A stretch of DNA of 64,000 nucleotides. Origin: a virus (taxonomy: Duplodnaviria; Caudoviricetes). The stretch is from the IMG/VR virus record IMGVR_UViG_3300048996_000065, positions 1,460 to 65,459 of that record; one strand, 5' to 3'. Shown one piece after another: positions 4,402 through 43,137 of the stretch. The translations under genes were made by a program, and so were the position numbers. Position 1 is the stretch's first letter, and each line of letters begins with the position of its first letter. Below the pieces are notes generated by a model that saw nothing but the letters and a program-made list of their open reading frames with translations, made no database searches and was not told the DNA's origin.

Positions 4402-5319
4402 TTAGAGTCCCGGAGTTCCGTAAAGGATGCGTGGATCCGTCCAGCCCGGGATATAACGCTCTGTGGCCTTGTAGCGCATGCTATCCGTATTGAAGTCGCC
4501 TTCCATGCTGCGTTCGAGCTTACGGCGCGTCAGGAGCTTCAACCCCTGCGGAGCGTCGGTCTCGATCCACCAAGCCGTTGTCGAAGTGATGCGGCTGATA
4601 TTCGCCTGACCATCCTTCAACATGTTCATCGACTTGATCGGATTGATGTCGTTGTTGCCCGTGCCAGCTCGGAGAATGCTCTTCAGCAGCACTTCCGCCT
4701 GGAAGACGTTCGATGGGCCCGTGACGATACGCATCGGCGTGAGACGGATGCGCTTACCGTTGTTGTCAACGGCATTACGAATCTGAATCAGCATCTGCTC
4801 CAGCGAAGTTTGCGACAGAGCAGCAGCAGTCGTGAGCAGGTTGCTGAAGGTACCACCGATGATCGGATGGTTCGTGGCGTTCAGAGCAACACCGTCACCA
4901 CCCACGAAAGCGCCGCCCGTGAACGAGCGGTTGATGATATTTGCCGTCAACGTTTCTTTCGTCTCGATCATCGACTGAGCGAGATGTTCAGAATACGTCG
5001 TACCGATCTTGATGTGATCACCGTCTTCGACCAGCACCTTCGTGAGAGCGAAAGCGAGACCGAATACCTTGTAGACGTAGCGCTGAATGAACAGCACGCC
5101 GCCAGACTGGTAGGTGACCGGAGCACCATCGGGCAGCTCAGGAGCCGCACCGAAGCCGTAAAGAACCGGCTCTTCGTGGTAGTTGCGAGGCGTACCACGT
5201 TGTTCGCGGAAGACTGGCTTCCACTCGTCGGCACGTTGATCGTAGATACCGTCAAACGTTTCGTTCAAAATCGGTTCGACGATTGAACGAAAGTCTGTAC
5301 TGCGCATTGGCGTAGCCAT
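4402..5319 (-). CDS. Major capsid protein (HK97 fold)
   Basis: 305 aa; GFGAAP..DG, LAQSMIETKE..ANIIN, GGDGVAL...HP, NNDINP, MEGDFNTDSMRYKATERY..GWTDPR. Confidence 0.9.
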   Translation of the reverse strand: MATPMRSTDFRSIVEPILNETFDGIYDQRADEWKPVFREQRGTPRNYHEEPVLYGFGAAPELPDGAPVTYQSGGVLFIQRYVYKVFGLAFALTKVLVEDGDHIKIGTTYSEHLAQSMIETKETLTANIINRSFTGGAFVGGDGVALNATNHPIIGGTFSNLLTTAAALSQTSLEQMLIQIRNAVDNNGKRIRLTPMRIVTGPSNVFQAEVLLKSILRAGTGNNDINPIKSMNMLKDGQANISRITSTTAWWIETDAPQGLKLLTRRKLERSMEGDFNTDSMRYKATERYIPGWTDPRILYGTPGL

Positions 5320-5947: not shown

Positions 5948-6514
5948 TCAGTCTTCCCCAACCAAAGAACCAAAGTTGGGGACCTTACGGGACCTCCCCA
6001 GTTCTGCGTTGCCTTCGTACTCCATGATCTTGGTCTTGCGCGATAGCCCCTGCTCTTCCAGGGACTGATTAGCCATATCAACCGCGACCCGAAGCTTCAA
6101 CTCCTCATCCCTAGGCTGAGTGTAGTGAGCTTCTTTCATATACGCCTGATAAAGCGAGAGCGGCAGCTTGAAAGCCACCATCTCATTGACACCAATACAT
6201 CCCTGGAGTTCGCCGGACGTAACTCTCAGCTGTTCATACCCGGGGACTTCGTGGGACTTGATCGGAGTATATCCAATGCGCATGCGCCCATGGATGGGAT
6301 CGCGCGAATTAGTCGTCGTCAACCAGCAGACGTGATAACCCGGAATCTTGGGAAGGTCAGGCAACGAAGCCTGGAAAAATTGCTTTCTGAACGTTTCAAG
6401 ACGCTTGGAGTCAGACAATCTCCGATTTTTCTTGATCACCCGCTTTTTCGAGTGGCGATCAGCACGGGAATCTTCTGAAGCTCTCTTCAGTCTCGAGTCT
6501 TTTAATTTAGCCAT
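5948..6514 (-). CDS. Conserved head-module protein
   Basis: LPDLPKIPGYHVCWL...R.RIGY.P...IGVNEMVAFKLP pattern; between scaffold and capsid genes. Confidence 0.6.
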   Translation of the reverse strand: MAKLKDSRLKRASEDSRADRHSKKRVIKKNRRLSDSKRLETFRKQFFQASLPDLPKIPGYHVCWLTTTNSRDPIHGRMRIGYTPIKSHEVPGYEQLRVTSGELQGCIGVNEMVAFKLPLSLYQAYMKEAHYTQPRDEELKLRVAVDMANQSLEEQGLSRKTKIMEYEGNAELGRSRKVPNFGSLVGED

Positions 6515-7644: not shown

Positions 7645-8106
7645 TTAGTCGAGATACGCTTTCACTTTGAGCGGATCGCCTCGGTATCTACCCAGCAGAT
7701 CCAGATCACGGAAAACGATGAAGATCGCAAACTCGCGGTCGTTAGTACCCGGAATCGGTAAACGCCACCGATCCCCGCCGTACTTCGTCACGCGCACGAA
7801 CTCTCCCGGTTCACACCAATCTCCTTCTTTCCAAGATTCCAGGGTGTCCTGGTTCTTGAAAGCGGTGTCGCCGAGAGCAAGAACTTTAGCAACCTGCGTG
7901 CTCCACTGATCCGTCTCTTGAGCATCGTCAGGAATGATGATACCGCCGTCAGACATTTTCTTTGACGTGCGGAGCTGAACAAGAACCCGGTCGCCAAACG
8001 GCTCGAACTCCGGGTCTATTGCAGGGAAGGCTGCCGCCAGGGCTGCCGCATACGCGGCACTAACCTCTTGGGCGGGGAGGCTTTTCAATCGGGTTTGGTT
8101 GCTCAT
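7645..8106 (-). CDS. groES: Co-chaperonin GroES-like protein
   Basis: PFGDRVLVQ...GGIIIPD...KVLALG...WCEPGEFV..TKYGG. Confidence 0.85.
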   Translation of the reverse strand: MSNQTRLKSLPAQEVSAAYAAALAAAFPAIDPEFEPFGDRVLVQLRTSKKMSDGGIIIPDDAQETDQWSTQVAKVLALGDTAFKNQDTLESWKEGDWCEPGEFVRVTKYGGDRWRLPIPGTNDREFAIFIVFRDLDLLGRYRGDPLKVKAYLD

Positions 8107-12811: not shown

Positions 12812-13317
12812 GTCAGCCTCTTCACTTCGCTTAGTTTATTGAGCAATCGATCCGTTCTCTGCACGTCTTCTAGTTTTTTCGTTCCATCTTTACGTACCCA
12901 ACCGCGCCTCTCCTCGACGCGTTCGTACTCGGGCCACTCACCGAGCGCCGTTAGATCCGGGATGAGATCGAAGTCGTTGTGAGCCCCGTAGCACCAATGA
13001 CCATTCAGGGTTGAATCGTAATCCATCTGGCCGACGACTACTCCGAATCCCCAGTGTTGGAAGATGGGGAATCGCAAGCTTCCATGCTTTTCTTGGTCGA
13101 CGGTTGACAAGAAAAACTTTCCGCGTTTAACTCGTCGAACTTGGGATGGAACATCGGAGTGTGTTCCTGAAGGTGCGTTGGCTTGCTCACCTCCGCCCAA
13201 AGCCTTTGCCAGAAGGTCGGTGCGTTTGAAACCCTGACTGACTGCAACCGCCGTAGACGTCGACGGTCCCGGATCGTTTGGAACAGTTTCATCGGATTCT
13301 CCAGTGTCATTGTGCAT
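12808..13317 (-). CDS. Hypothetical protein
   Basis: 169 aa ORF coupled to the terL stop. Confidence 0.5.
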   Translation of the reverse strand: MHNDTGESDETVPNDPGPSTSTAVAVSQGFKRTDLLAKALGGGEQANAPSGTHSDVPSQVRRVKRGKFFLSTVDQEKHGSLRFPIFQHWGFGVVVGQMDYDSTLNGHWCYGAHNDFDLIPDLTALGEWPEYERVEERRGWVRKDGTKKLEDVQRTDRLLNKLSEVKRLT

Positions 13318-14827
13318 ACGGGTTCCCAGATTTCTTCAATCGAGCTATCGCACGCTGGCGCATGATGTCTTCGATATCCGGTTTGAATTCCAGAGCGCCG
13401 AAGAACTTGTCCATCGCCAGACGCAGAGCTTGGGTCGTCGTATCCAGCAAGTCGTCATGCTCGATACTCCCCTCGCCAACAAAGGAACAGACTTGGGAGA
13501 TCGTTGGATTCGCCCATGTCTTCGGTTGGCCCCTGCGTACATCCGATTCTACGCACCAAACGCGTCCGTGCGCAAATAGCGGACTCACATAGTGAAGTCG
13601 AGTGAGTTTATCTTCCCGTCCAGGATTGTATGCCTCCGTTAAAACATTCTCGATCGCCAGCGCTTGGCGCAACGAGATACCGCTGCCTTTCTCCTCGATG
13701 AGAATGCAATCCGGTTTCCGTCCTGTATGCCCCGACGTGCGCTCGCGACCGTCGATGATCGGTCGTAGCTTCGGCTCGTTATAGTCGCCGTAGGTCAGCA
13801 ACCGCTCTTTCTTTACGCGTTTCATCAACGCGGGGAATCCCAATCGATCTTCCCACGCATCAAGAAGCATGATGTTCAGCTTCTTCTCGTACTCGAACAA
13901 GCCCCACACCGTGCAAGCCGTCGGATCATTCTCCTGCTTCTTCTTGTTAAACGTATCGTCCGTGAACGCCGTGTCCAACGACATGATGATGAACTTAAAC
14001 TTAGGCAGCGGTCTGCCTGCTTTCCATAGCCGCCACTGCGATCGCTTGACGAATCCGGCTTCTTCTGGGTCTAACAGCTCGCCCCATAGCTCCTGGCGTC
14101 CGACGTTCGTGCCTTCGTACTTCGCTACGTTCTGGAAGTAAACGTCGGGAAGGTTAGCGCTATTCTCGTAGGTGCTGCCCGTTATAAGGACCGTACGCGG
14201 GTCCTCGGATAGCATGCGCACGAACGGCTTAGGCTTCGGCGTCGATGTCCAGCACACCTGGGGATTCGTTCCCAAGCGCAAGCCGAACATCAAGTTATCC
14301 CAAGCAAGCTCCGGGTATTTCCAGCTGGCAATCTCGTCGCACCATGCCGCGTGATGCTGAGGTCCGCGCAAGCGCTCCGGGCTATCGCCGGCGAAGCCGC
14401 GAATCATCGCACCGTTTATCAGGGTGATGCTGGGAAGCGAAAGCGACGAGTTAGCTTTATCAATCAGCTCCGGTGGAATCACATTCCATAGTCCGGTCTC
14501 GCCCTCGAAGCACGTGAACCGCACGTCGCCATATGTCGGAGCTACGACAGCGAAGTAACCGTTCGGAGTATTCGCGGCGAGCTGACCAATCCAATTCGCA
14601 GCGGTCAGCGTCTTGCCAAAGCCACGTCCCGATCGGATGCCCCATACGGTCCACAGCCCGGTTGGCTGAAGTTGTTTTGCCCGTGCCTTAGCTCGCCACT
14701 GAAGTCGCCACCGTAGAACGCTGAGTTCGTAAGCCGTGAAGCTTTCGAGCGTTTTTCTAAGAGCGCTTCTTGTTAATTTTGCGAGCTGAAGATTTTTCGG
14801 AGCTTTGACTAGAGCTGTCGTCGCCAT
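13307..14827 (-). CDS. terL: Terminase large subunit
   Basis: Walker A GRGFGKT, Walker B WCDE, TSTP, nuclease SLDTA...IEEKGSG...HDDLLD. Confidence 0.95.
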   Translation of the reverse strand: MATTALVKAPKNLQLAKLTRSALRKTLESFTAYELSVLRWRLQWRAKARAKQLQPTGLWTVWGIRSGRGFGKTLTAANWIGQLAANTPNGYFAVVAPTYGDVRFTCFEGETGLWNVIPPELIDKANSSLSLPSITLINGAMIRGFAGDSPERLRGPQHHAAWCDEIASWKYPELAWDNLMFGLRLGTNPQVCWTSTPKPKPFVRMLSEDPRTVLITGSTYENSANLPDVYFQNVAKYEGTNVGRQELWGELLDPEEAGFVKRSQWRLWKAGRPLPKFKFIIMSLDTAFTDDTFNKKKQENDPTACTVWGLFEYEKKLNIMLLDAWEDRLGFPALMKRVKKERLLTYGDYNEPKLRPIIDGRERTSGHTGRKPDCILIEEKGSGISLRQALAIENVLTEAYNPGREDKLTRLHYVSPLFAHGRVWCVESDVRRGQPKTWANPTISQVCSFVGEGSIEHDDLLDTTTQALRLAMDKFFGALEFKPDIEDIMRQRAIARLKKSGNPYAQ

Positions 14828-15317
14828 CAGGTTTTGGTTTAATCAGGTTGACGATATCGTCGATCAAACCGGCACGACTGGCTTCAATCTGGATAGCTTT
14901 TCCGCCAGGCCCGCTCTGTTCGACAGCTGACCGTTGTTGCCAATGTTCTCTCTTCCGATTGTTCAGCCAGTACTTGGCCGCTTCTACATCGGGAGGGTAG
15001 TGAACGTTGACATCGAGAGTTTCGTAATCGTCCTTGTACTTGATGATCTTCGTTTCCTTGATCTTGAATTTCCCTGTAGCTCGTTTCCATAGCGCAGCTA
15101 CGACTTCCGTGTCGGCGCGCATTCGCCCCTTCTCGAGCGCATCTTTAAACGAGGGATACGTCTTCTTCCATTTCTTGAAGAGATCGTATTGAATGCCGAA
15201 GCACTGTGCTATCTCGCGATCATCGAGCCCACGCATCGCCACCATTTTTACTTCCGTCAAGTAGTCGGGAAGGAAAAGACCGTTGGCAGGTTTGAGCTTG
15301 CGTCGGGGGCGGATCAT
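14757..15317 (-). CDS. terS: Terminase small subunit
   Basis: HTH (GLDDREIAQCFGI...WKK.YPSF), VVAALWKRATG, PPDVEAAKYWLNNR; directly upstream of terL. Confidence 0.85.
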   Translation of the reverse strand: MIRPRRKLKPANGLFLPDYLTEVKMVAMRGLDDREIAQCFGIQYDLFKKWKKTYPSFKDALEKGRMRADTEVVAALWKRATGKFKIKETKIIKYKDDYETLDVNVHYPPDVEAAKYWLNNRKREHWQQRSAVEQSGPGGKAIQIEASRAGLIDDIVNLIKPKPDGDDSSSQSSEKSSARKINKKRS

Positions 15318-15359: not shown

Positions 15360-15692
15360 CTACGTGCTGGCTAATTCCCTGAGCAACTCCGCATAGCATC
15401 GCGGCTTATAGCTCGACTCGTAAAGATAGAATTGCGGGCAAAGCCTGTACAGAATCCGTTGAAACTCGATGCCATGCCCTCCCTTGCCTCTTAAGCCATG
15501 AGCCAACTCGTGCGCAACATAGTACTCAACGAATCCCGACGGCGGATCTTTGAATATCCAATCGGGCAGGGTGATGCGATTCGTACGAAAACTATAACGA
15601 CCGCGTTTGACCGGCTTGACGATAATCTCGGGAATCTTACTGCGTATCTTCGCACGCTTGTAGATCATCCGAGCTATTTCATCGGGATTCAT
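15360..15692 (-). CDS. Zincin-type metalloprotease-like protein (SprT/YgjP-like)
   Basis: YYVAHELAH (HExxH) followed by GHG.EF; ATGA-coupled start at 15692. Confidence 0.7.
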   Translation of the reverse strand: MNPDEIARMIYKRAKIRSKIPEIIVKPVKRGRYSFRTNRITLPDWIFKDPPSGFVEYYVAHELAHGLRGKGGHGIEFQRILYRLCPQFYLYESSYKPRCYAELLRELAST

Positions 15693-16015
15693 GCAACGTC
15701 GGTAGGATCTTTCGGCTTCATGCCGTCTGTATTCACCGTCCACAAGTTGCCCGCGTTTGCGATGGCCGCTAGCTGACGGGTGGTTTGCGCCAGCAGCGAT
15801 AGACTGGCGTCTATGTTGATATCGCCCCAGCCGTAAATGTTCAATCGCCCCGTCTTCGAATCACGAATGATGCAAACGGCTTGATCGATCGTTACTCCTT
15901 TCACCGGCGGAGTCTCGACCTCGCTCGCCAGCTTACGCATCATCTCAGGGATACGACGTGCGTTCGACTTATACAGCGTCTTAACACTGGCAAGCTTCGG
16001 CTTATCGTCACTCAT
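15689..16015 (-). CDS. Hypothetical protein
   Basis: Coupled ORF starting MSDDKP. Confidence 0.55.
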   Translation of the reverse strand: MSDDKPKLASVKTLYKSNARRIPEMMRKLASEVETPPVKGVTIDQAVCIIRDSKTGRLNIYGWGDINIDASLSLLAQTTRQLAAIANAGNLWTVNTDGMKPKDPTDVA

Positions 16016-16286
16016 CGAATGCATCCTTGAATAAATCTTTGTGATCAAGGTAGATGATATCGAATTGTTCGCGTAACGGATCGTAAAGAATCTTGGCCCA
16101 TTCCGCGTGGGGGTTGTAAAGCCTAGCTGCGATCATCTCCCGCGTCTGTAGCATCGATGCGTATAGCTGGTTAGCCCACGCCTCGCTAGCAGCCACTAGC
16201 TTGGGATCGACGACATCGAGCTTGATCAGTTCGGTAGGCGCGAGCGCAGCGCTAACCGCGAGAGTTACGAAATTTCTTCTGTTCAT
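16008..16286 (-). CDS. Small protein with RRNF Tat-like N-terminus and MCP spine-helix-like segment
   Basis: MNRRNFVTLAVSAALAP; WANQLYASMLQTREMIAARLYN vs MCP YSEHLAQSMIETKETLTANIIN. Confidence 0.6.
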   Translation of the reverse strand: MNRRNFVTLAVSAALAPTELIKLDVVDPKLVAASEAWANQLYASMLQTREMIAARLYNPHAEWAKILYDPLREQFDIIYLDHKDLFKDAFDE

Positions 16287-16450
16287 CGAAGTGTTTTCCA
16301 ACGGTCGCTCTGTCGGTTCTCGATATTGCGTCGAGTCTCATTAATGCCCGCACGCAGCTTCCCGGTGTGCTCGTCCGGAGTGCGATCCTTGATCCAACGA
16401 TGCCACATCGCCACGTCGAAAGGCTTACGACGATTACTCTTGCTCTGCAT
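16283..16450 (-). CDS. Small hypothetical protein
   Basis: MQSKSNRRKPF...; overlaps both neighbours in a coupled array. Confidence 0.45.
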   Translation of the reverse strand: MQSKSNRRKPFDVAMWHRWIKDRTPDEHTGKLRAGINETRRNIENRQSDRWKTLR

Positions 16451-16646
16451 GTTTGCGTTTCTCCATGCGCCGTTCGCGCTTCGCTTGCGCCACCTGTCGC
16501 TTGTCCCGTTGTTCATACGACGAAGGCGCAGCGGTACTGCGAGGAGCGGCATGCGCAGCCTTCATTACCTTATCGATCATGAACTGATTGCCCACGTAAC
16601 GATCGGAGCTACGCGAGTCTTTCGTTGGTTTACGGTGTTTCTTCAC
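16434..16646 (-). CDS. Small basic hypothetical protein
   Basis: GTG start, Lys/Arg-rich, coupled array. Confidence 0.45.
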   Translation of the reverse strand: MKKHRKPTKDSRSSDRYVGNQFMIDKVMKAAHAAPRSTAAPSSYEQRDKRQVAQAKRERRMEKRKHAEQE

Positions 16647-16872
16647 GGCATTCCCCGTTTCGGTGATAGATGCAAATGCCATCGCCATGCGGCGTGTCGC
16701 GTTGGAAGTAGCGGCAATATGCGACGGTCATATCTGCGGGCTCGTGCGGTGTCGTGTGCATCACCCCGCGCATATCCGTCCAGCCGTACGTGTAACGTTC
16801 TTTGAATCTGTAACGGATGTTGCCCGTCTCAAAGTCGCCCGTGCTCAATTCCTTCATCAGCTTATCGGTCAT
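16630..16872 (-). CDS. Small protein containing an MCP C-terminal fragment
   Basis: GDFETGNIRYRFKERYTYGWTDMR vs MCP GDFNTDSMRYKATERYIPGWTDPR (14/24 identical); ATGA-coupled to NADAR; GGAG RBS. Confidence 0.7.
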   Translation of the reverse strand: MTDKLMKELSTGDFETGNIRYRFKERYTYGWTDMRGVMHTTPHEPADMTVAYCRYFQRDTPHGDGICIYHRNGECREETP

Positions 16873-17312
16873 TGCCGTGTCTCCCGCCAAGCGTTGTTGT
16901 CCTGTAGCTCCAAGCGCAGCTTCATCAGCAGTTTGCCCAAGTGGTTCTCGCCGACGCCTTTGCACACGCCCCAATACACGTCGTTCCATACGTTGCCCTC
17001 GACTAGCTCCGCACCCCCCGTGTTGATGAGCGCATCGCGAAAGGGATTGATCGCAAATTTCTTGCGCAGCAAATCCTCCATCACATTCAGCTTAATGCCC
17101 TCCCACTCCGGTCGCATTGGTACACGCTTGCCCAGCTGCTTGGCGTACGCCGACGTTGGAGCGCAGCGTATCTTCTCGCGCTTGCGCAAGTTAGATGTCT
17201 TCGCAGCCTGATACGCGTGCTCAACGCTCGGATACACCCAGCCATCGTACTTGATCGGCACCATCGCGAAGTTGCTAAGAAACGCGTACTTCCCCCGAAA
17301 GCTCGTGATCAC
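16869..17312 (-). CDS. NADAR family (YbiA-like) ADP-ribose/N-glycosidase hydrolase
   Basis: FLSNF, YPSVEHAYQAAK, LVEGN.WND.YWG, GENHLGKLLM. Confidence 0.9.
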   Translation of the reverse strand: MITSFRGKYAFLSNFAMVPIKYDGWVYPSVEHAYQAAKTSNLRKREKIRCAPTSAYAKQLGKRVPMRPEWEGIKLNVMEDLLRKKFAINPFRDALINTGGAELVEGNVWNDVYWGVCKGVGENHLGKLLMKLRLELQDNNAWRETRQ

Positions 17313-17527
17313 GACAGCTTTACCTCACGTGCGGGATTGGCTTTCAGCTTGACGCGCGCTTTTCGTAGCTCTTTGATTAACACTTCGATATCATCCGCGT
17401 TTAACGTAGCTACACACTGCAGCACACTATCCATGAACCAGCCGAGATTAACCCGTTGACCGAGCGTATCGAATCCTACTTCCAGCTGATCAGCGATGAA
17501 TACTTCTAGCTGGTTGGCAATGATCAC
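17309..17527 (-). CDS. Hypothetical protein
   Basis: GTGA-coupled start at 17527. Confidence 0.45.
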   Translation of the reverse strand: MIIANQLEVFIADQLEVGFDTLGQRVNLGWFMDSVLQCVATLNADDIEVLIKELRKARVKLKANPAREVKLS

Positions 17528-17739
17528 GAGAATCTCCGAATGCGTAAGCCGAGAACGCGCCAGTATTCGTGCATTGCCGTCCACTGAGCTTGCAGCAACA
17601 CTTGATCTTCCTTATCCAACGTCGCGAATACTTGCCCTTCGAGGAATGCTGTTAGCTTCGTCAGCTTCTCTTCCAGCTCAGTGTTCTCGTCGACGACGCG
17701 TTGTTGAAACGCTTTGTACGGAACTCTATCTTCGCTCAT
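17524..17739 (-). CDS. crAss001_48-like helical hairpin protein
   Basis: QQRVVDE..EL.EK..KL.AF...F..L...D..LL..Q...M..Y..VL..RI pattern. Confidence 0.7.
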   Translation of the reverse strand: MSEDRVPYKAFQQRVVDENTELEEKLTKLTAFLEGQVFATLDKEDQVLLQAQWTAMHEYWRVLGLRIRRFS

Positions 17740-18068
17740 ATAACCCCCATCGATCCAAAGAATTCACCGTTGGCAGCAACGCACCACTCACCGCGTTTCA
17801 ATCCGGGACGTGGCAACACGTTGACCCAGAACGAACACAAGTTGACGCAATGTTTCGCCACGCTGCGCGCTATCACCACGTCCTCAGGGTTGACGTACAA
17901 GTAGTAGACCGAGGCATCGCCACATTGGGACGCAGCTTCGCACACGCCGACATAGCTCAAATCGCACGTCATGCCGGGTAGCACGGGCTTGTAATGCATC
18001 GGCTGGCACTCGTGCCCATGCTTCGCGTCGTATTGGCGCTGGCAGATATCGCATTTGACCATGCTCAT
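17736..18068 (-). CDS. Zn-knuckle protein with possible MCP A-domain-like segment
   Basis: CDICQ...HEC N-terminus; DLSYVGVCEA...YLYVNPEDVVIARSV...VLPRPGL...EWCV. Confidence 0.5.
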   Translation of the reverse strand: MSMVKCDICQRQYDAKHGHECQPMHYKPVLPGMTCDLSYVGVCEAASQCGDASVYYLYVNPEDVVIARSVAKHCVNLCSFWVNVLPRPGLKRGEWCVAANGEFFGSMGVI

Positions 18069-18262
18069 GCTGGCTCCAGATTCTTGGCGAAGTACTCGGG
18101 AGCGATGTACCACTGGTCCATATGGTCCGTCGGGTTGCGTGCGATCATGCCGCCTTCCTTCGGTACGTCGGTGTTGCTGACCGAGATACCGATCATACTC
18201 TCGCCCGGTACATACGGACGTGCTTCGGTCAAACCCTTGCGCTTGTACTGAGCCCACTTCAT
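18065..18262 (-). CDS. Conserved small phage protein
   Basis: YKRK...EARPYVPGE...PKEGGMIARNP..H.DQWY.A..YF..N pattern. Confidence 0.65.
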   Translation of the reverse strand: MKWAQYKRKGLTEARPYVPGESMIGISVSNTDVPKEGGMIARNPTDHMDQWYIAPEYFAKNLEPA

Positions 18263-18441
18263 GCCGATTCTCCAGTCAGAAAGATGCTTTGGTCGGGGTG
18301 TTCAGGGTTATCCACCTGTGCAAGCGCGCTCTTGAGCATGAGATAACGCGAAATATCGCCGTTCTTCTCGCACAGCTGATCTAACCGTTCGACCTGTTCT
18401 TGCGTTAGCGTGGTGGTGACGCTGATTCGGGGTAAGGGCAT
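18259..18441 (-). CDS. Ribbon-helix-helix DNA-binding protein
   Basis: RISVTTTLTQEQVERLDQLCEK...SRY, CopG-like; AGGAG RBS. Confidence 0.6.
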   Translation of the reverse strand: MPLPRISVTTTLTQEQVERLDQLCEKNGDISRYLMLKSALAQVDNPEHPDQSIFLTGESA

Positions 18442-18450
18442 ATCGTTCTC

Positions 18451-18660
18451 CTAAGGTTCGATGATTAAAGGATTGCTCATCAGCGTTTCCCATTGCGCGA
18501 GAGCTTTGCATCGCTGGCATTGCGCTGTGATCTCCCGCTTCACGGCGCTGTCCGCGTACGGGACGTTGTATTGGCACGTACATGCGGTCGTTACCTTCAG
18601 CACGCGGTACAGCTCGTGAGCCGCTTCTGCGATGCTTACGCCTTGCGCAACGCTGGTCAT
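18451..18660 (-). CDS. Small Cys-containing hypothetical protein
   Basis: CTC...CQRC; ATGA-coupled. Confidence 0.45.
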   Translation of the reverse strand: MTSVAQGVSIAEAAHELYRVLKVTTACTCQYNVPYADSAVKREITAQCQRCKALAQWETLMSNPLIIEP

Positions 18661-19313
18661 GGCATAACCCAACGTCGTACAGGGAGAGCAACCGATCCAA
18701 GGGCCTCGACGTAGACGCGCAACGCATCTTTGACCGGTACGTACGTTGGCGAGTCCCACGTGTTGCGTTCGATCAACCCTGCCTCGCACAGCTCGCGCTG
18801 AATGTTCTCGATAGCGAACGATCCAATTGGGTTGAATCCTGGCTGCCAGTAGTAGCGCATCGCAATCTCGATGAAGAGCGGTGATCGATGCCAGAATCCT
18901 ACATCAAAACGCGATTCAGTTGAGAACACGTAACGCTTCGCCTGCTCAACCATCGAGGGATCTGGATCCATGACCGCTTGTCGAACGCCGCCATCGATCT
19001 CAACCTCTTCGAATGCGCGAGGTGTAGTCATGAACGAGTTAACCTGGACCACGGCTTCCTCGCCGGGTTTGATATCGAGGGCCGGCATGTTCGACTCTGG
19101 TCCAAGATGACCGTCGAATACGTCGTGGATATTCCGTTCAGGGATGCGTGCTTCATCTACCATCGTAACCGCACCAGCGCCGCTCAATGCGGCAGCGTAA
19201 CCGCTAGCGACGTCCACTCGATCTCGCCATAGTCGATCACGCTCCTTCTCTTTCAGCTGATCGACGGCGCGTTCTGCGCAACGAGAACATGGGTTGGTTT
19301 TATCGTCGGCCAT
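18657..19313 (-). CDS. Hypothetical protein
   Basis: Start MADDK at 19313 with GGAG RBS. Confidence 0.55.
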   Translation of the reverse strand: MADDKTNPCSRCAERAVDQLKEKERDRLWRDRVDVASGYAAALSGAGAVTMVDEARIPERNIHDVFDGHLGPESNMPALDIKPGEEAVVQVNSFMTTPRAFEEVEIDGGVRQAVMDPDPSMVEQAKRYVFSTESRFDVGFWHRSPLFIEIAMRYYWQPGFNPIGSFAIENIQRELCEAGLIERNTWDSPTYVPVKDALRVYVEALGSVALPVRRWVMP

Positions 19314-19369
19314 ACCGCATCTCCGAGTAGTAATTCTAGTTGGGAGTCTGCGAGCGATCGCGACATCCA

Positions 19370-19535
19370 CTCGTTGAGCATCGCAACGAGAAATGGTAGG
19401 ATGCGCGAGCGCCGCATTAGAAAGCGCTTGACATGCCGTTGCTATTGCAAGGGTGTTCGTAGCGGTCGATGATCGAAGCGCTTTCTGATGCAGCCGGTAG
19501 AACGCTCGCCCCTGCGATGAACGAGCGTCCTATAT
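19370..19535 (-). ncRNA. Structured intergenic element
   Basis: Hairpin 19498-19532; 11-bp inverted repeat 19419-19429/19476-19486; hairpin near 19370-19391. Confidence 0.35.
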
Positions 19536-19677
19536 CATCTATGGAAAGTCCGTCTTTGTGGTTATGCGTGCTAGAGCATTGGGATCACCTCCAAACGTTT
19601 AGGTGAGTTGCTTTAAGCCGATCGAATCGTCAGGGCGGGGCATATCGTCGCGCTACACGAACGTGCGCGCAACTTTT

Positions 19678-19899
19678 CTATTCACCGGCTCGAATAGCGT
19701 CGATCTGTTCGCGTGTCACGGTGCGCTTGCAATCCATGCAGCGCGGAACATTGCAGCGAATCAGCCGTAAGAATTCGTTATCCTCGTCGTGACCGCTCCA
19801 CGTCTCTGAGTGTAGCTCTTCGATGCGCCACTTGTACTCGACGCCATTGACGCCACCGCAATACGGGCAGACTAATTGCTTTTGTTTCTTGGCGGGCAT
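19678..19899 (-). CDS. Zn-ribbon protein
   Basis: CPYCG...CMDC. Confidence 0.55.
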   Translation of the reverse strand: MPAKKQKQLVCPYCGGVNGVEYKWRIEELHSETWSGHDEDNEFLRLIRCNVPRCMDCKRTVTREQIDAIRAGE

Positions 19900-20075
19900 T
19901 TGCGAGCGATTCTCAGGGTGGTGTGCTCGTCCAGCGGTATCTCGATGATCGATGCGCCGCCCGAATGTTCGAGCACGGCCAGGGCTGCACGCTTTAGCCC
20001 GTCCATCAAGGCTTCGTTCTTATCAGCCCACACCGGATCATCGAAGTCCGGTATTACCGTCGGCGGCATGTGCAT
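19872..20075 (-). CDS. Hypothetical protein
   Basis: GGAGG RBS; first substantial gene of the leftward unit. Confidence 0.5.
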   Translation of the reverse strand: MHMPPTVIPDFDDPVWADKNEALMDGLKRAALAVLEHSGGASIIEIPLDEHTTLRIARKCPPRNKSN

Positions 20076-31386: not shown

Positions 31387-31484
31387 GATTCGAATATAAG
31401 TGCAAGCATTGCCATAAAATCTATCGGGTCAATTACAACCGTTGCCCATGGTGCGGTGGACCCCTAGAGGAGAATGTATCATGA
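31383..31484 (+). CDS. Tiny Zn-ribbon protein
   Basis: GTG start, FEYKCKHC...RCPWCG; coupled at both ends. Confidence 0.45.
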   Translation: MRFEYKCKHCHKIYRVNYNRCPWCGGPLEENVS

Positions 31485-32125
31485 TCGGTCGTCGATTCTA
31501 TGATCTGCTGGAAATCAGCGAGGATGCCACGCAGAAGGATATCAAGGACGCATATCGTCGGCTGTCTTCCCGGTACCACCCTGATAAGCAACACGGTAAG
31601 TCGCAGGATGAGGCGGAAGAAAATGCCAAGCGCTTCGTGGATGTGAAAACCGCTTACGAGTGTTTGAATGATCCCGAGAAGCGGGTCATCTACGACGAGA
31701 GTGGCGATGACTCGTCCGGCCCTAAAGCCGATCCCGTAGAAGACTTGTTCATGACCATGTTGAACGAGCTGATCGAAGATTCGGATAGCATCGCGGAGCT
31801 ACTAGCTAAATGCCGGCATGCTACCGAAGCCTTGATCAGCGACGTGGATGTTCGTAAAGCCGAACAGAACAAACTTATTTGGCGGCTCGAGCGGATCATG
31901 AAGAAAGTCAAATACAAAGGTAAAGGAGCTAACCTAATCGAAGGGGTGTACGCGGATAAGATAAAGAATGCAAAAGCCGGGTTGGAGGACTTGGTAGACG
32001 CTGGCAATGCCGCTAACGGCCTCTTAACCTTGCTGAAGGATTATGAGCCGTTGGATCGATACGACGGGAAGCGGGATTCCATAATCGATCCCGCCCAGCT
32101 TCTTCGTGACTTTACTAGGATTTAA
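31481..32125 (+). CDS. J-domain (DnaJ-like) protein
   Basis: FYDLLEI...IKDAYRRL...YHPDK...AYECL.DPEKR..YD; GAGGAG RBS. Confidence 0.9.
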   Translation: MIGRRFYDLLEISEDATQKDIKDAYRRLSSRYHPDKQHGKSQDEAEENAKRFVDVKTAYECLNDPEKRVIYDESGDDSSGPKADPVEDLFMTMLNELIEDSDSIAELLAKCRHATEALISDVDVRKAEQNKLIWRLERIMKKVKYKGKGANLIEGVYADKIKNAKAGLEDLVDAGNAANGLLTLLKDYEPLDRYDGKRDSIIDPAQLLRDFTRI

Positions 32126-40160: not shown

Positions 40161-40600
40161 AAACCAAACGCATTAGCCGTGAGCAAGCGCTAATGGAGAT
40201 GGCGATTTCCGCTTCAAGACGCTCAACCTGTCAACGACGCGATGTAGGGGCGTTGATTGCAATCGACGGGCGTCCCGTGGTGACCGGGTATTCGGGAGCA
40301 CCCTCTAAGATGATCGATTGTTTAAAAGGCGGATGCATCCTCGGACCCGACGGTGGTTGTATCAGAACCGTGCATGCCGAAGCAAACGCTATCGTGTTCG
40401 CAGCTCGCAAGGGAATTGCGTGCGAGGGAGGAACGCTATACACCACCCTTAGTCCTTGCCCCGATTGCGCTAACATGATCATCAATGCGGGCATCACTCG
40501 AGTGTGGTATCTGGAACCCTACCGTATAGTAGATGGTATAACCATCCTCCGTGAGATGGGGATTGGTTGCGATCACCTGTTGTTCGATTTCGATCTATGA
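40157..40600 (+). CDS. dcd: dCMP deaminase
   Basis: RSTC.RR.VGA, TGY.G, HAEANAI, PCPDC. Confidence 0.9.
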   Translation: MKTKRISREQALMEMAISASRRSTCQRRDVGALIAIDGRPVVTGYSGAPSKMIDCLKGGCILGPDGGCIRTVHAEANAIVFAARKGIACEGGTLYTTLSPCPDCANMIINAGITRVWYLEPYRIVDGITILREMGIGCDHLLFDFDL

Positions 40601-43137
40601 ATCGCAATCCTAAGTGCACGGATTGCAAATTTCACGAAACGGCTAAAACCGTGTGTCTTCCGGGGGAAGGACCGAAGAACGCACGAGTGATGATTATCGG
40701 AGAGTCCCCCGGCTTCGATGATGACCATACTGGAAGACCCTTTCAGGGTAAAGGCGGACGCTTGCTCAAGGAGGAGCTGGTCCGAGCTGGAATTGCACCG
40801 GAAGAGTGCTATATAACGCACACCGTTAAATGCGCTCCGCCCGGTGACTCGGAACCGAAGGCGCCAGAACTCAAAGCATGCCGCAAATACCTGGAATCCG
40901 AGCTGGCCGAGGTGAAACCCGAATACGTGATAGCGCTCGGCCGCATTGCATCGAAAGCGGTTCTAAAGGAAACGAAGATAACCGAGGTACACGGACAGAT
41001 CAAGGAATTTAAAGATCTCCTGGGATCTTTCAAGGGCATGGCAGCATTCAGCCCCAACTTTTGTTTACGTGATCCGTCGAAGCTCCCGATTCTCCGTAAA
41101 GATCTGGGGCGAGTCATCGGAGAAGTGCTCGGTAAGAAAAAAGAAGTACGTGCGCCGTTTAAATGGCGTGAGGTCAACGACGAAAATATCCATGAATTCT
41201 ATCGAGCGTTGATCAATTGCGAGTGGTTCTCATTCGACTTAGAAACGTCTGGGCTCGACTGGTTCAATCCCAAGGGTTGGATTACATGCTTGAACATGTC
41301 GTTCGATCGGGACGGTGGAACCTGGGTTCTGCCGATGACTATGCCATTCTCGCCATATGCATTTTTCGATAGACAGAAATTCATCATTCGCAAAATTGCG
41401 AGACTGCTTAAGGACGGTAAGAAGAAAGGATGCGCACATAACGGCAAGTTCGATAATCACTGGCTCTGGCGTATCTTCGGGGTCCTATTTCCGCTTCACT
41501 TCGATACCATGCTGGCGTCGCATTGCATCGATGAGAATCGAGCTCACGCCCTGGACTCGCTTGCTACGTCCTACCTCGATGCCCCGTACTACGATATCCC
41601 GCTGCATTGGAAGCAGGGGCAATGGAAACCCGGCGAAGGAACGCGCGCAAACGTGCGTACGGTTTACCGTTACGGCGCTAAAGACGCCTATTACACGCTT
41701 ACGATGCGTCCGATCATGGAGAAGGAGCTTCGTACCGATCCGCAGGTGTTCAGACTTTTCCGACGTTTGGTGATGCGCGCCGCCCGTGCTTTCCATCGTA
41801 TCGAAGACAACGGATTGTATGTGATCCGCAAACGCTTCGTGGATACCCGGAAGCAGGTGGTGATCGATCGAGATGCGGCATTGGTTGATTTAAATTGCAT
41901 GGCCGGCAAGGTTGATGTCCGATCCGGGGTGAAGCGCAAGATCAATTGGAATTCACCGCAACAGGTAGCAAAGCTTTTATTTGAGAAGCTAAAGCTGCCC
42001 GTGATCGAACGTACGGAAACCGGAGCACCCTCCACCGGCGAGAACACGCTGATTGCATTGAAGAATAAGCACCCGGTTGCGAATGCGTTGGTAAAATATC
42101 GGGAGTTAGATAAATTTCTGGGAACCTACCTGGATGGTTGGAAATCGCTGATGCATAAGGATCGAGTGTACTTCAGTTATAAGTTGCACGGAACCGTAAC
42201 AGGGAGATATTCGTCTAGGTTGCATCAGACACCACGAGATAAGCGCATCCGTACAACGGTGTCCGCTCCGGACGGGTGGACATTCGTTCAGGGTGACTTC
42301 TCGCAAGCTGAGTTGCGCATCGCTGCAATTCTATCCGGCGACCTAGAAATGTTACGATGCTTCGCCGAAGGTATCGACATCCATTGGAAAACCCTGATGT
42401 ATGTCATTCAATCCGGGGGCGTAGGGGAGTATGTCAAGCATGTCAAAAAGACCGCTCGTGTACTTGCGGGCAAGAAAGTCGGGTTTAACGATGCTATTGA
42501 GCTTGTGCTCCAAGCCGGACATAAGCGTTGCATTGAGATCTGGGACGGATGGAAGGAAGCTCGTAAAAAAGCGAAAGGCATCAACTTCGGCTTCGTGTAC
42601 GGCATGCGAGAAAATAAGTTCATCGAGTACGCAAAGGCTAATTACGACTTCGAGCCCACTCAGGAAGAAGCTCGATTGATTCGACGTGCCTACTTCCAGC
42701 TGTATCGCGGATTGGAGCCGTGGCATGAGAAAATGCGCAAGCTTGTACGGCTCGACGGCTCGGTTAGGAGCTTAAGCGGGCGACTGCGACGATTGCCCGG
42801 GGTTAGCTCCTCGGACCGTTCGCTACGCTCCGAATGCGAACGGCAAGCGATAAATAGCCCCGTACAGGGGTATATCGGCGACCATAAAGCGATGGCGCTA
42901 GTAGAGTTGGCCGATAAGCTGGATTGGAATCGTTCGCGTCTGGTCGGTGAGGTACACGATTCCCTGCTGTTCTGGGTACGTACCGAGCTGCTAGCCGAGG
43001 AGCTGCCGAAGATCGCCGCAATCATGCGAGACCCCGAATTGCTCAAAGAATTCAAAATCGATCTCCCCGTGAAAATCGAGCCGGAACTGGAAGTAGGTGA
43101 CTGGGGTGCGGGTAAGGAGTGGAAAATGGCAGCGTGA
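40597..43137 (+). CDS. polA: Family A DNA polymerase with N-terminal family-4 UDG-like domain
   Basis: UDG: CTDC, GESPG, GRPF.G.GG, VKC.PP, KAC; exonuclease: FDLETSG, HNGKFD, YGAKDA; polymerase: DFSQAELR, KAKGINFG..YG, VHDS. Confidence 0.95.
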   Translation: MNRNPKCTDCKFHETAKTVCLPGEGPKNARVMIIGESPGFDDDHTGRPFQGKGGRLLKEELVRAGIAPEECYITHTVKCAPPGDSEPKAPELKACRKYLESELAEVKPEYVIALGRIASKAVLKETKITEVHGQIKEFKDLLGSFKGMAAFSPNFCLRDPSKLPILRKDLGRVIGEVLGKKKEVRAPFKWREVNDENIHEFYRALINCEWFSFDLETSGLDWFNPKGWITCLNMSFDRDGGTWVLPMTMPFSPYAFFDRQKFIIRKIARLLKDGKKKGCAHNGKFDNHWLWRIFGVLFPLHFDTMLASHCIDENRAHALDSLATSYLDAPYYDIPLHWKQGQWKPGEGTRANVRTVYRYGAKDAYYTLTMRPIMEKELRTDPQVFRLFRRLVMRAARAFHRIEDNGLYVIRKRFVDTRKQVVIDRDAALVDLNCMAGKVDVRSGVKRKINWNSPQQVAKLLFEKLKLPVIERTETGAPSTGENTLIALKNKHPVANALVKYRELDKFLGTYLDGWKSLMHKDRVYFSYKLHGTVTGRYSSRLHQTPRDKRIRTTVSAPDGWTFVQGDFSQAELRIAAILSGDLEMLRCFAEGIDIHWKTLMYVIQSGGVGEYVKHVKKTARVLAGKKVGFNDAIELVLQAGHKRCIEIWDGWKEARKKAKGINFGFVYGMRENKFIEYAKANYDFEPTQEEARLIRRAYFQLYRGLEPWHEKMRKLVRLDGSVRSLSGRLRRLPGVSSSDRSLRSECERQAINSPVQGYIGDHKAMALVELADKLDWNRSRLVGEVHDSLLFWVRTELLAEELPKIAAIMRDPELLKEFKIDLPVKIEPELEVGDWGAGKEWKMAA

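Follow-up and report, generated by a model that had tools for sequence, protein, structure and literature searches.

This report concerns one small gene in a stretch of 64,000 nucleotides (the window) that covers positions 1,460 to 65,459 of IMG/VR record IMGVR_UViG_3300048996_000065, a virus of the Duplodnaviria (Caudoviricetes). The 65,459-bp record, of which the window is nearly all, has direct terminal repeats and is rated complete; a soil metagenome, the sole sequencing run in which the phage genome was found, is its probable source. The product of the gene, P0003, joins a segment homologous to the C-terminal end of the phage's own major capsid protein (MCP) to a tail with conserved cysteines and histidines. 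This chimeric architecture recurs in four divergent proteins, P0003 included, and the gene lies directly behind one for a NADAR-domain protein, in a hypervariable island of small genes.

The P0003 gene and its capsid-like half

Three open reading frames (ORFs) of the island had been taken in a first-pass annotation for fragments of the spine helix (P0002), the C-terminal strands (P0003) and the A-domain (P0004) of the MCP. They lie on the minus strand as described (Table 1), and the ATG of each overlaps the stop of its upstream ORF (ATGA), which for P0003 is the TGA of the NADAR gene. The M-T/S N-termini of the P0003 relatives described below align across the family and support the ATG at 16872 as the start.

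Residues 1-42 of P0003 match residues 263-303 of the resident MCP by blastp (E 2e-9, 17/42 identical), and none of 2000 shuffles matched the P0003 score against the MCP. When the MCP was compared with all six frames of the window by tblastn, P0003 was the only significant match other than the MCP itself (E 1.5e-5), and in an all-against-all blastp of the 1226 ORFs of the window P0003 and the MCP were the only pair between two real genes. A hidden Markov model (HMM) of 79 family MCPs finds P0003 among these 1226 ORFs with an E of 6.8e-12, over model positions 261-299 of about 301, and the MCP and P0003 families align in hhalign with a probability of 98% (E 2.3e-13). In 50,697 phage records the only tblastn matches to P0003 were MCP C-termini, at up to 62.5% identity over 32 amino acids (aa; E 9e-7), and the only leads from a protein atlas search, at 0.82, went to short capsid-protein pieces. 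No Pfam or PHROG family is matched by P0003 itself. The codon-usage score of the MCP-like half (+0.38 per codon, with a GC content at third codon positions of 0.76) is like that of the MCP gene, while that of the tail half is neutral (-0.03 per codon, 39 codons).

The MCP used as reference matches PHROG major head families (E 1.7e-10 and 1.7e-7) and the Pfam Mu-like gpT family (E 1.6e-4). Its AlphaFold2 (AF2) model has an HK97 fold, with a predicted local distance difference test (pLDDT) score of 83. Residues 102-130 form the spine helix, 261-273 and 282-292 a long hairpin in the P-domain, and 299-302 the last strand; Foldseek searches with the model return encapsulins and phage capsids at E values of about 1e-10 to 1e-8. 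Sequence searches of the PDB with the MCP and with P0003 gave nothing significant. In these terms the capsid piece runs from the second strand of the hairpin through the GW.D.R loop to the last strand, and P0003 has the first strand and the turn as well.

The source of this half is an MCP of the CRP-901/HTVC023P/DSL-LC04 type, with which P0003 has the motif GDFETGN.RY...ERY..GW.D.R in common, and from which it differs in having no N-arm, E-loop, spine helix or A-domain. It is nearer to the consensus of another MCP clade (up to 23/42) than to the MCP of its own phage. At 80 aa P0003 does not have the complete fold of about 300 residues, and its homology to the MCP, significant as it is, covers a segment; to judge by its sequence it is derived from an MCP but is not one.

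Table 1. Positions of the P0003 gene, its parts and other features of the minus strand, in window coordinates
Feature	Position	Strand	Basis or remark
P0003, 80 aa, chimera of MCP C-terminal element and Cys/His module	16630..16872	-	ORF, translation, homologues
MCP-like half, aa 1-42, equivalent to MCP 263-303 (P-domain beta-hairpin and last strand)	16747..16872	-	blastp, HMM, hhalign, MCP model
Tail half, aa 43-80 and stop, conserved Cys/His module	16630..16746	-	four-way alignment
Shine-Dalgarno-like GGGAG within the 3' end of NADAR, 8 nt ahead of the ATG of P0003	16881..16885	-	sequence
NADAR-domain gene, directly upstream of P0003	16869..17312	-	Pfam NADAR E 6e-22; PHROG 1017 E 1.2e-42
P0002, 92-aa orphan ORF, twin-arginine-like N-terminus	16008..16286	-	borderline resemblance to MCP spine helix
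P0004, 110-aa Cys-rich ORF	17736..18068	-	not MCP-like, outside the feature
terS	14757-15317	-	after the island
terL	13307-14827	-	after terS; followed by a gene for an 872-aa protein
GroES-like co-chaperonin gene	7645-8106	-	near the head genes; followed by three conserved unknowns, MCP and tail genes
Resident MCP, 305 aa, HK97 fold, reference for comparison	4402-5319	-	PHROG, Pfam, AF2, Foldseek

The P0003 family and its divergence

An exhaustive phmmer search of 1,835,955,588 representative proteins with P0003 gave 25 matches at E <= 0.001. Three of these are small proteins, P0005 (80 aa, E 2e-19), P0006 (82 aa, E 6e-14) and P0007 (68 aa, E 1e-12), which match both halves of the query (residues 14-76, 18-75 and 19-78, respectively). 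The other 21 comprise four repeat proteins, P0010, which is discussed with P0002 below, and MCPs, truncated or full, whose C-termini account for the match. The repeat proteins (P0008, P0009, P0011 and P0026) were set aside, their matches being judged convergent or boosted by the repeats. P0008 and P0009 are secreted-looking proteins of 849-1124 aa with many Cys-containing repeats of the form C.E.GN.EYW.C..CG..WLD; the unit resembles the capsid hairpin motif, with an E of 2e-9 summed over the repeats, a likeness that we take to be convergent.

The alignment of P0003 with P0005, P0006 and P0007 has 24 invariant columns. In the capsid-like half these include E25, R26, Y27, W31, D33 and R35, and the family's E, R, Y and D fall on positions that are invariant in the MCPs (E287, R288, Y289 and D295). 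In the tail they include M48, T49, C53, Q57, R58, T60, P61, H62, G65, C67, Y69, H70, G73, E74 and C75, among them five cysteines and histidines in the order C-H-C-H-C (C53, H62, C67, H70 and C75), and the 68-82 aa proteins have the signature ERY..[GA]W.D.R followed by MT..(Y/H)C...QR.TPH..G.C.YH..GEC. Because of these invariant columns the P0003 tail is seen as a conserved module and not as read-through; its five Cys/His residues presumably bind a metal. No Pfam family, those of zinc-binding modules included, is matched by any of the four members at E <= 5.

The four sequences form four singleton clusters, with P0005 and P0003 having an exact stretch of nine residues in common, and in P0005, P0006 and P0007 the similarity to MCPs is limited to about 20-25 residues. 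Over the 24-aa core the members share 8-10 of 24 residues with each other as against 10-13 of 24 with MCPs, figures which suggest that all have been held to the same motif. On present sequence evidence P0003 and its relatives are a rare family of four, a chimera of the MCP C-terminal element and a Cys/His module, and that P0003 belongs to a genuine family of MCP-derived genes is very probable.

Other searches added no members. A word-index search with P0003 returned only the query near its own length and nothing among longer proteins; this method is weak, having missed all three relatives that phmmer brought up, although P0005 is in the same collection, and its blanks carry little weight and do not make a protein an orphan. 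No relative was found in viral contigs, whether the search was made with P0003 alone or with the family alignment. Two metagenome-contig loci and one genome-contig locus that the alignment did bring up were discarded as spurious, the former being frames inside bacterial genes and the latter lying inside a membrane-protein gene. With P0005 and P0007 as queries, tblastn of the phage records found only MCP C-termini, for example that of the unannotated MCP of Caulobacter phage RW.

The capsid motif was also followed directly. Viral contigs contain at least 120 stretches of the form GDFETGN[IV]RY, of which 80 were read and 75 could be evaluated, five being cut by contig ends. All 75 lie inside a full-length MCP, 268-293 codons into the frame and 24-33 codons before its stop; in P0003 the motif lies 11 codons from the start. 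Fifty-three loci selected by their TerL (589 kb with 9773 ORFs) contained four full MCPs according to the MCP HMM, no fragment of one, and no member of the P0003 family according to its own HMM. The recurrence of such fragments in related phages, for which the first-pass annotation had proposed a survey, therefore did not materialize, either at the 75 motif sites or in the 53 TerL-related loci.

The divergence of the segment bears on whether P0003 is a relic. Compared with sampled MCPs its third codon positions are 29% identical, the chance level of saturated sites, and positions 1 and 2 are 58-59% identical. On the segment profile P0003 scores 56.2 bits and the resident, functional MCP 56.1. 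Real MCP segments subjected in simulation to neutral decay, up to the same first- and second-position divergence, score 22.5 +/- 8.0 bits, and 0 of 400 reach P0003. The MCPs for this test were the motif-selected ones, since the set from the TerL-selected loci held only 4; and since that motif had been taken from P0003, the simulation was repeated after the ten columns of the motif had been dropped. The score of P0003 was now 24.2, against 1.5 +/- 4.2 for the simulants, with again 0 of 400 reaching it, while the resident MCP stood at 38.9, which makes P0003 more degenerate than the end of a functional capsid protein. The divergence of P0003 from the MCPs is accordingly selection-filtered and not neutral, neutral evolution being one of the outcomes that had been named in advance as fatal to the proposal. 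The simulation is compatible both with purifying selection on the fragment and with a recent copy from an unsampled, divergent MCP lineage; selection is favoured because the family exists.

The annotation was also correct in describing this ORF as intact, diverged, MCP-derived and fused to an unrelated tag, and in not seeing it as a decayed second capsid gene, since three further small proteins have the same chimeric make-up and each half contains invariant residues. An inert recombination scar has to be considered as well: 120 nt from a foreign MCP gene might have been stranded behind NADAR, at a junction of the mosaic, and lie in an open frame by chance. The homology does start exactly at the NADAR end, this phage alone has the island, which is mosaic, the tail has no codon-usage signal, and by our estimate an ATG over a TGA stop followed by 38 open codons is not very improbable by chance. 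However, the frame is intact although third positions are saturated, the divergence is selection-filtered, none of the MCP C-termini read from 80 motif loci (of at least 120) comes nearer than 23/42 as a donor, and the three other proteins, with both halves and invariant residues in each, largely refute a scar, which we consider highly improbable. P0003 is a real, selected small gene, in which an exapted piece of an HK97-fold MCP has been joined to a Cys/His module of about 30 residues.

The island and its other ORFs

The island (15360-20075, minus strand) lies between terS and a divergent region. Its genes are absent from the two closest relatives (TerL 80-82% identical, MCP 92% identical), which have other DNA there; from this comparison and from the surveys of motif sites and TerL loci, the gene is rare and the island hypervariable. 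Over about 90 nt the NADAR gene is 73-76% identical in nucleotide sequence to Xylella phages Sano and Bacata. Further genes of the island encode a SprT/YgjP-like peptidase, a crAss001_48 protein and a ribbon-helix-helix protein. NADAR proteins of T4-like phages are described, in the available text of PMC11257639, as orphan antitoxin-like counter-defence against DarTG1. Of P0003 and this neighbour, only NADAR falls in a family whose counter-defence role is known.

The two other ORFs that had been assigned to the MCP fare less well than P0003. For P0002 the case is borderline, and its derivation from an MCP is not established: blastp against the spine helix gives an E of 8e-4 for one comparison, with 11/39 identical, and none of 2000 residue shuffles reaches its score, under a null that is lenient for amphipathic helices. 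Against the MCP-family HMM its E is 0.071, third among the 1226 ORFs, and hhalign gives a probability of 6.7% (E 0.0054, single comparison). P0002 has no tblastn match in the phage records and none to any MCP of the fetched loci at E <= 0.1; the word-index search, whose blanks again carry little weight, returned only the query, the protein atlas yielded nothing usable, and Pfam TAT_signal is not matched at E <= 5. P0004 was rejected as an A-domain fragment, since neither blastp (E 2), nor the HMM (no match at E <= 100), nor hhalign shows any similarity, and 232 of 2000 shuffles score as well. In the profile searches against MCP HMMs that the first-pass annotation had called for, therefore, only P0003 was significant, and of its three fragments one stands, one is borderline and one shows no similarity.

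An N-terminal module common to otherwise unrelated small phage proteins was noticed in connection with P0002. It consists of a twin-arginine-like MNRRGFLK, a hydrophobic stretch and a second box, FLPPRGGW, and the C-terminal parts of the proteins differ. Its carriers are the metagenomic protein P0010 (165 aa, possibly cut by a contig end) and two further loci, L181:5995-6315(+) and L185 ~6001-6114(+); P0002 begins MNRRNFV and is without the second box. P0010 matches Pfam TAT_signal with an E of 0.0045 and 17.3 bits, under the 22.7-bit cut-off. Its residues 44-74 are 74% identical to residues 273-303 of the resident MCP (E 1e-12) and residues 94-165 weakly resemble MCP 182-254 (E 0.002), so that the capsid segments stand in permuted order behind a Tat-like leader.

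The full proposal had been that three MCP-derived genes, carrying the spine helix, the C-terminal strands and the A-domain, act jointly as a decoy system. P0002 does lie 344 bp downstream of P0003, its rank against the MCP HMM and its shuffle test are in favour, and P0010 joins a twin-arginine-like N-terminus, as in P0002, to an MCP C-terminal motif close to that of the resident MCP. Yet the hhalign probability of P0002 is low, it matches no other MCPs and has no homologues from which to build a profile, P0004 resembles the MCP by no method, and relatives hold no fragments. With one piece borderline and another showing nothing, the three-part system is not supported, and we give it next to no credence.

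As to the wider setting, the minus strand carries genes from about 20,100 down to position 1, beginning with the island (20,075-15,360) and continuing with the packaging and head genes of Table 1. The order GroES, three unknowns, MCP is also found in Roseobacter phage CRP-901, phage DSL-LC04 and Caulobacter phage RW. Elsewhere the phage encodes a DnaJ-domain protein (31442-32125, plus strand), a family A DNA polymerase with an N-terminal domain of the uracil-DNA-glycosylase superfamily (40567-43137, plus strand), ThyX, Prim-Pol, a PD-(D/E)XK nuclease and a SNF2 helicase.

Proposed capsid mimicry and its possible targets

The function that we propose for P0003 is mimicry. Its capsid-like half would be unstructured alone and take up its strand conformation on a partner, thereby imitating the most conserved element of the capsid protein and competing with the real MCP for that partner; the Cys/His module would serve as a stable handle or as a blocking group. 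In the AF2 model of P0003 aa 18-42 have a pLDDT below 50 and about aa 45-75 one of 61-78, a pattern which would fit a peptide that folds only on its partner. A complex prediction for the MCP with P0003 scored 0.01, which counts neither for nor against binding. The likeliest target would be a capsid-sensing defence protein, bound without being triggered, because of the nature of the island and because many host defences sense capsid proteins: CapRel, Thoeris and CBASS are reported to be triggered by them in the available text of PMC13728456, and Avs7, Avs8, Avs10 and Dsr1 in that of PMC13581612. That P0003 acts by mimicry has, in our estimation, about an even chance; as the best explanation, weighted by that uncertainty, it falls somewhat short of one, and the specifically anti-defence version is possible but rather less probable. 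We would rank mimicry directed at defence first, followed by interference with the capsids of related phages, a metal-binding protein unrelated to capsids and, last, an inert scar.

Several observations weigh against the mimicry proposal. Avs sensors recognise whole conserved core folds, as far as the available text of PMC13581612 describes them, and 25-40 residues may be too few to form the epitope. P0003, with up to 23/42 to the other clade and 17/42 to its own MCP, is no specific imitation of the resident capsid. The family is tiny, at four sequences, the association with the island comes from one genome, the tail half is without a codon-usage signal, and the simulation would come out the same for a copy taken recently from a divergent MCP outside the sample. 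No precedent for a capsid-fragment decoy or a dominant-negative P-domain fragment was found in the open-access literature; a decoy or mimic function is a plausible proposal.

A feature of the MCP family itself is relevant to the second possibility. The 25 MCPs of the consensus (aquatic) clade that were picked from 74 by a filter at <85% identity all have a Lys at the tip of the E-loop, an Asn in the hairpin turn and a Glu seven residues on, the Asn being imposed by the search pattern and the Lys not. All five MCPs of the resident clade are without the Lys, having Leu instead, and without the Asn, having Ser instead; in the resident MCP the sites lie at residues ~55-72 and 272-292. The same seven-residue spacing separates Asn356, the cross-link acceptor, from Glu363, the catalyst, in HK97 (available text of PMC5701804 and bioRxiv 10.1101/2022.09.09.507160). 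This suggests that an HK97-type covalent chainmail is present in the aquatic clade and has been lost in the resident soil clade, a comparison that consists of a single clade split.

P0003 could then be a capsid-assembly modulator or weapon, its P-domain strand pairing with MCPs, with assembly intermediates or with a neighbour's E-loop. As a weapon it would act on co-infecting phages that have an MCP of the same family, poisoning their assembly or maturation, with the resident MCP, diverged in this segment, being spared; in the boldest form it would offer a cross-link acceptor Asn and catalytic Glu to the E-loop Lys of chainmail capsids. The residues conserved in the family are the invariant ones of the MCPs, as expected if the same contacts are made as in the capsid, P0003 is closer to the consensus clade than to the MCP of its own phage, it keeps N18 and E25, and the two clades do differ in Lys and Asn, in 25 of 25 and 5 of 5 cases. 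However, only two of the four family members have the Asn, the covariation is that same single split with the Lys as its only free observation, and such phages are not known to co-infect one host. Cross-linking in HK97, moreover, needs a pocket formed by three subunits (bioRxiv 10.1101/2022.09.09.507160, available text), which an isolated peptide is unlikely to provide. We regard this possibility as unlikely.

The capsid strand might also have been exapted without any mimicry, as part of the fold or of an oligomer interface in a small metal-binding protein such as a regulator or a host-enzyme inhibitor. In keeping with this, no part of P0003 is better conserved or better modelled than the tail, the MCP similarity of P0005, P0006 and P0007 is so short (about 20-25 residues), and small Cys/His proteins are common in the accessory regions of phages, P0004 being another in the same island. 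But the six invariant residues of the capsid half sit at positions conserved in the MCPs, and over this segment the members resemble one another no more than they resemble MCPs, which would not be expected of a segment free to adapt; we find this account doubtful. Mimicry of the capsid element, with a defence protein as its partner, remains the proposal that we prefer.

It can be compared with several known systems. The Gol peptide of T4, an internal part of gp23, is recognised by the Lit protease of e14 and activates this defence. As would be the case here, a short section of a major capsid protein suffices for a host defence protein to recognise it, but Gol is part of gp23, whereas P0003 is the product of a separate gene with an added Cys/His module. 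The Ccm protein of SaPIbov5 is a satellite capsid homologue that redirects the assembly of helper capsids. Like P0003 it is a relative of the capsid protein encoded outside the structural module, and it interferes with capsid assembly, as P0003 might; proteins of the Ccm type, however, have the full HK97 fold and co-assemble, while P0003 has at most 42 residues of that fold. CapRel SJ46 is triggered by the MCP and by Gp54, a small protein of Bas11, and a staphylococcal Thoeris is also capsid-sensing, according to the available text of PMC13728456 and PMC13581612. Going by these, the MCP is a frequent trigger of such defences and small phage proteins can engage the same sensor; no natural capsid-fragment antagonist of them was found in the open-access literature. 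The NADAR counter-defence is comparable in that a phage keeps a stand-alone copy of a part from another system as a counter-measure, but NADAR is an enzyme copied from host defence and P0003 a non-enzymatic piece of a phage structural gene. For a stand-alone, conserved fragment of a capsid end fused to a Cys/His module, as the sequences present it, we found no described counterpart in the open-access literature.

Capsid proteins are among the commonest triggers of bacterial immunity (CapRel, Avs7/8/10, Dsr1 and Thoeris), and Lit is likewise among the capsid-triggered defences. The known way of escaping capsid sensing is mutation of the capsid gene itself. We tentatively suggest that P0003 and its three relatives represent a new class of phage counter-measure, a capsid-element mimic on a metal-binding handle that would blind a capsid sensor or sabotage the capsids of competitors (most boldly, by offering the cross-link Asn and Glu to an E-loop Lys that the resident capsid lacks). 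Should P0003 prove to be an unrelated metal-binding protein, the finding would shrink to an evolutionary curiosity. Independently of its function, the signature in the MCPs suggests that covalent chainmail of the HK97 type may be common in a large family of aquatic phages. If the suggestion is true, a separate, selected gene for the most conserved element of the capsid would be a different kind of answer to capsid sensing, and also one of the few documented instances in which part of a structural gene has been exapted as a new small protein.

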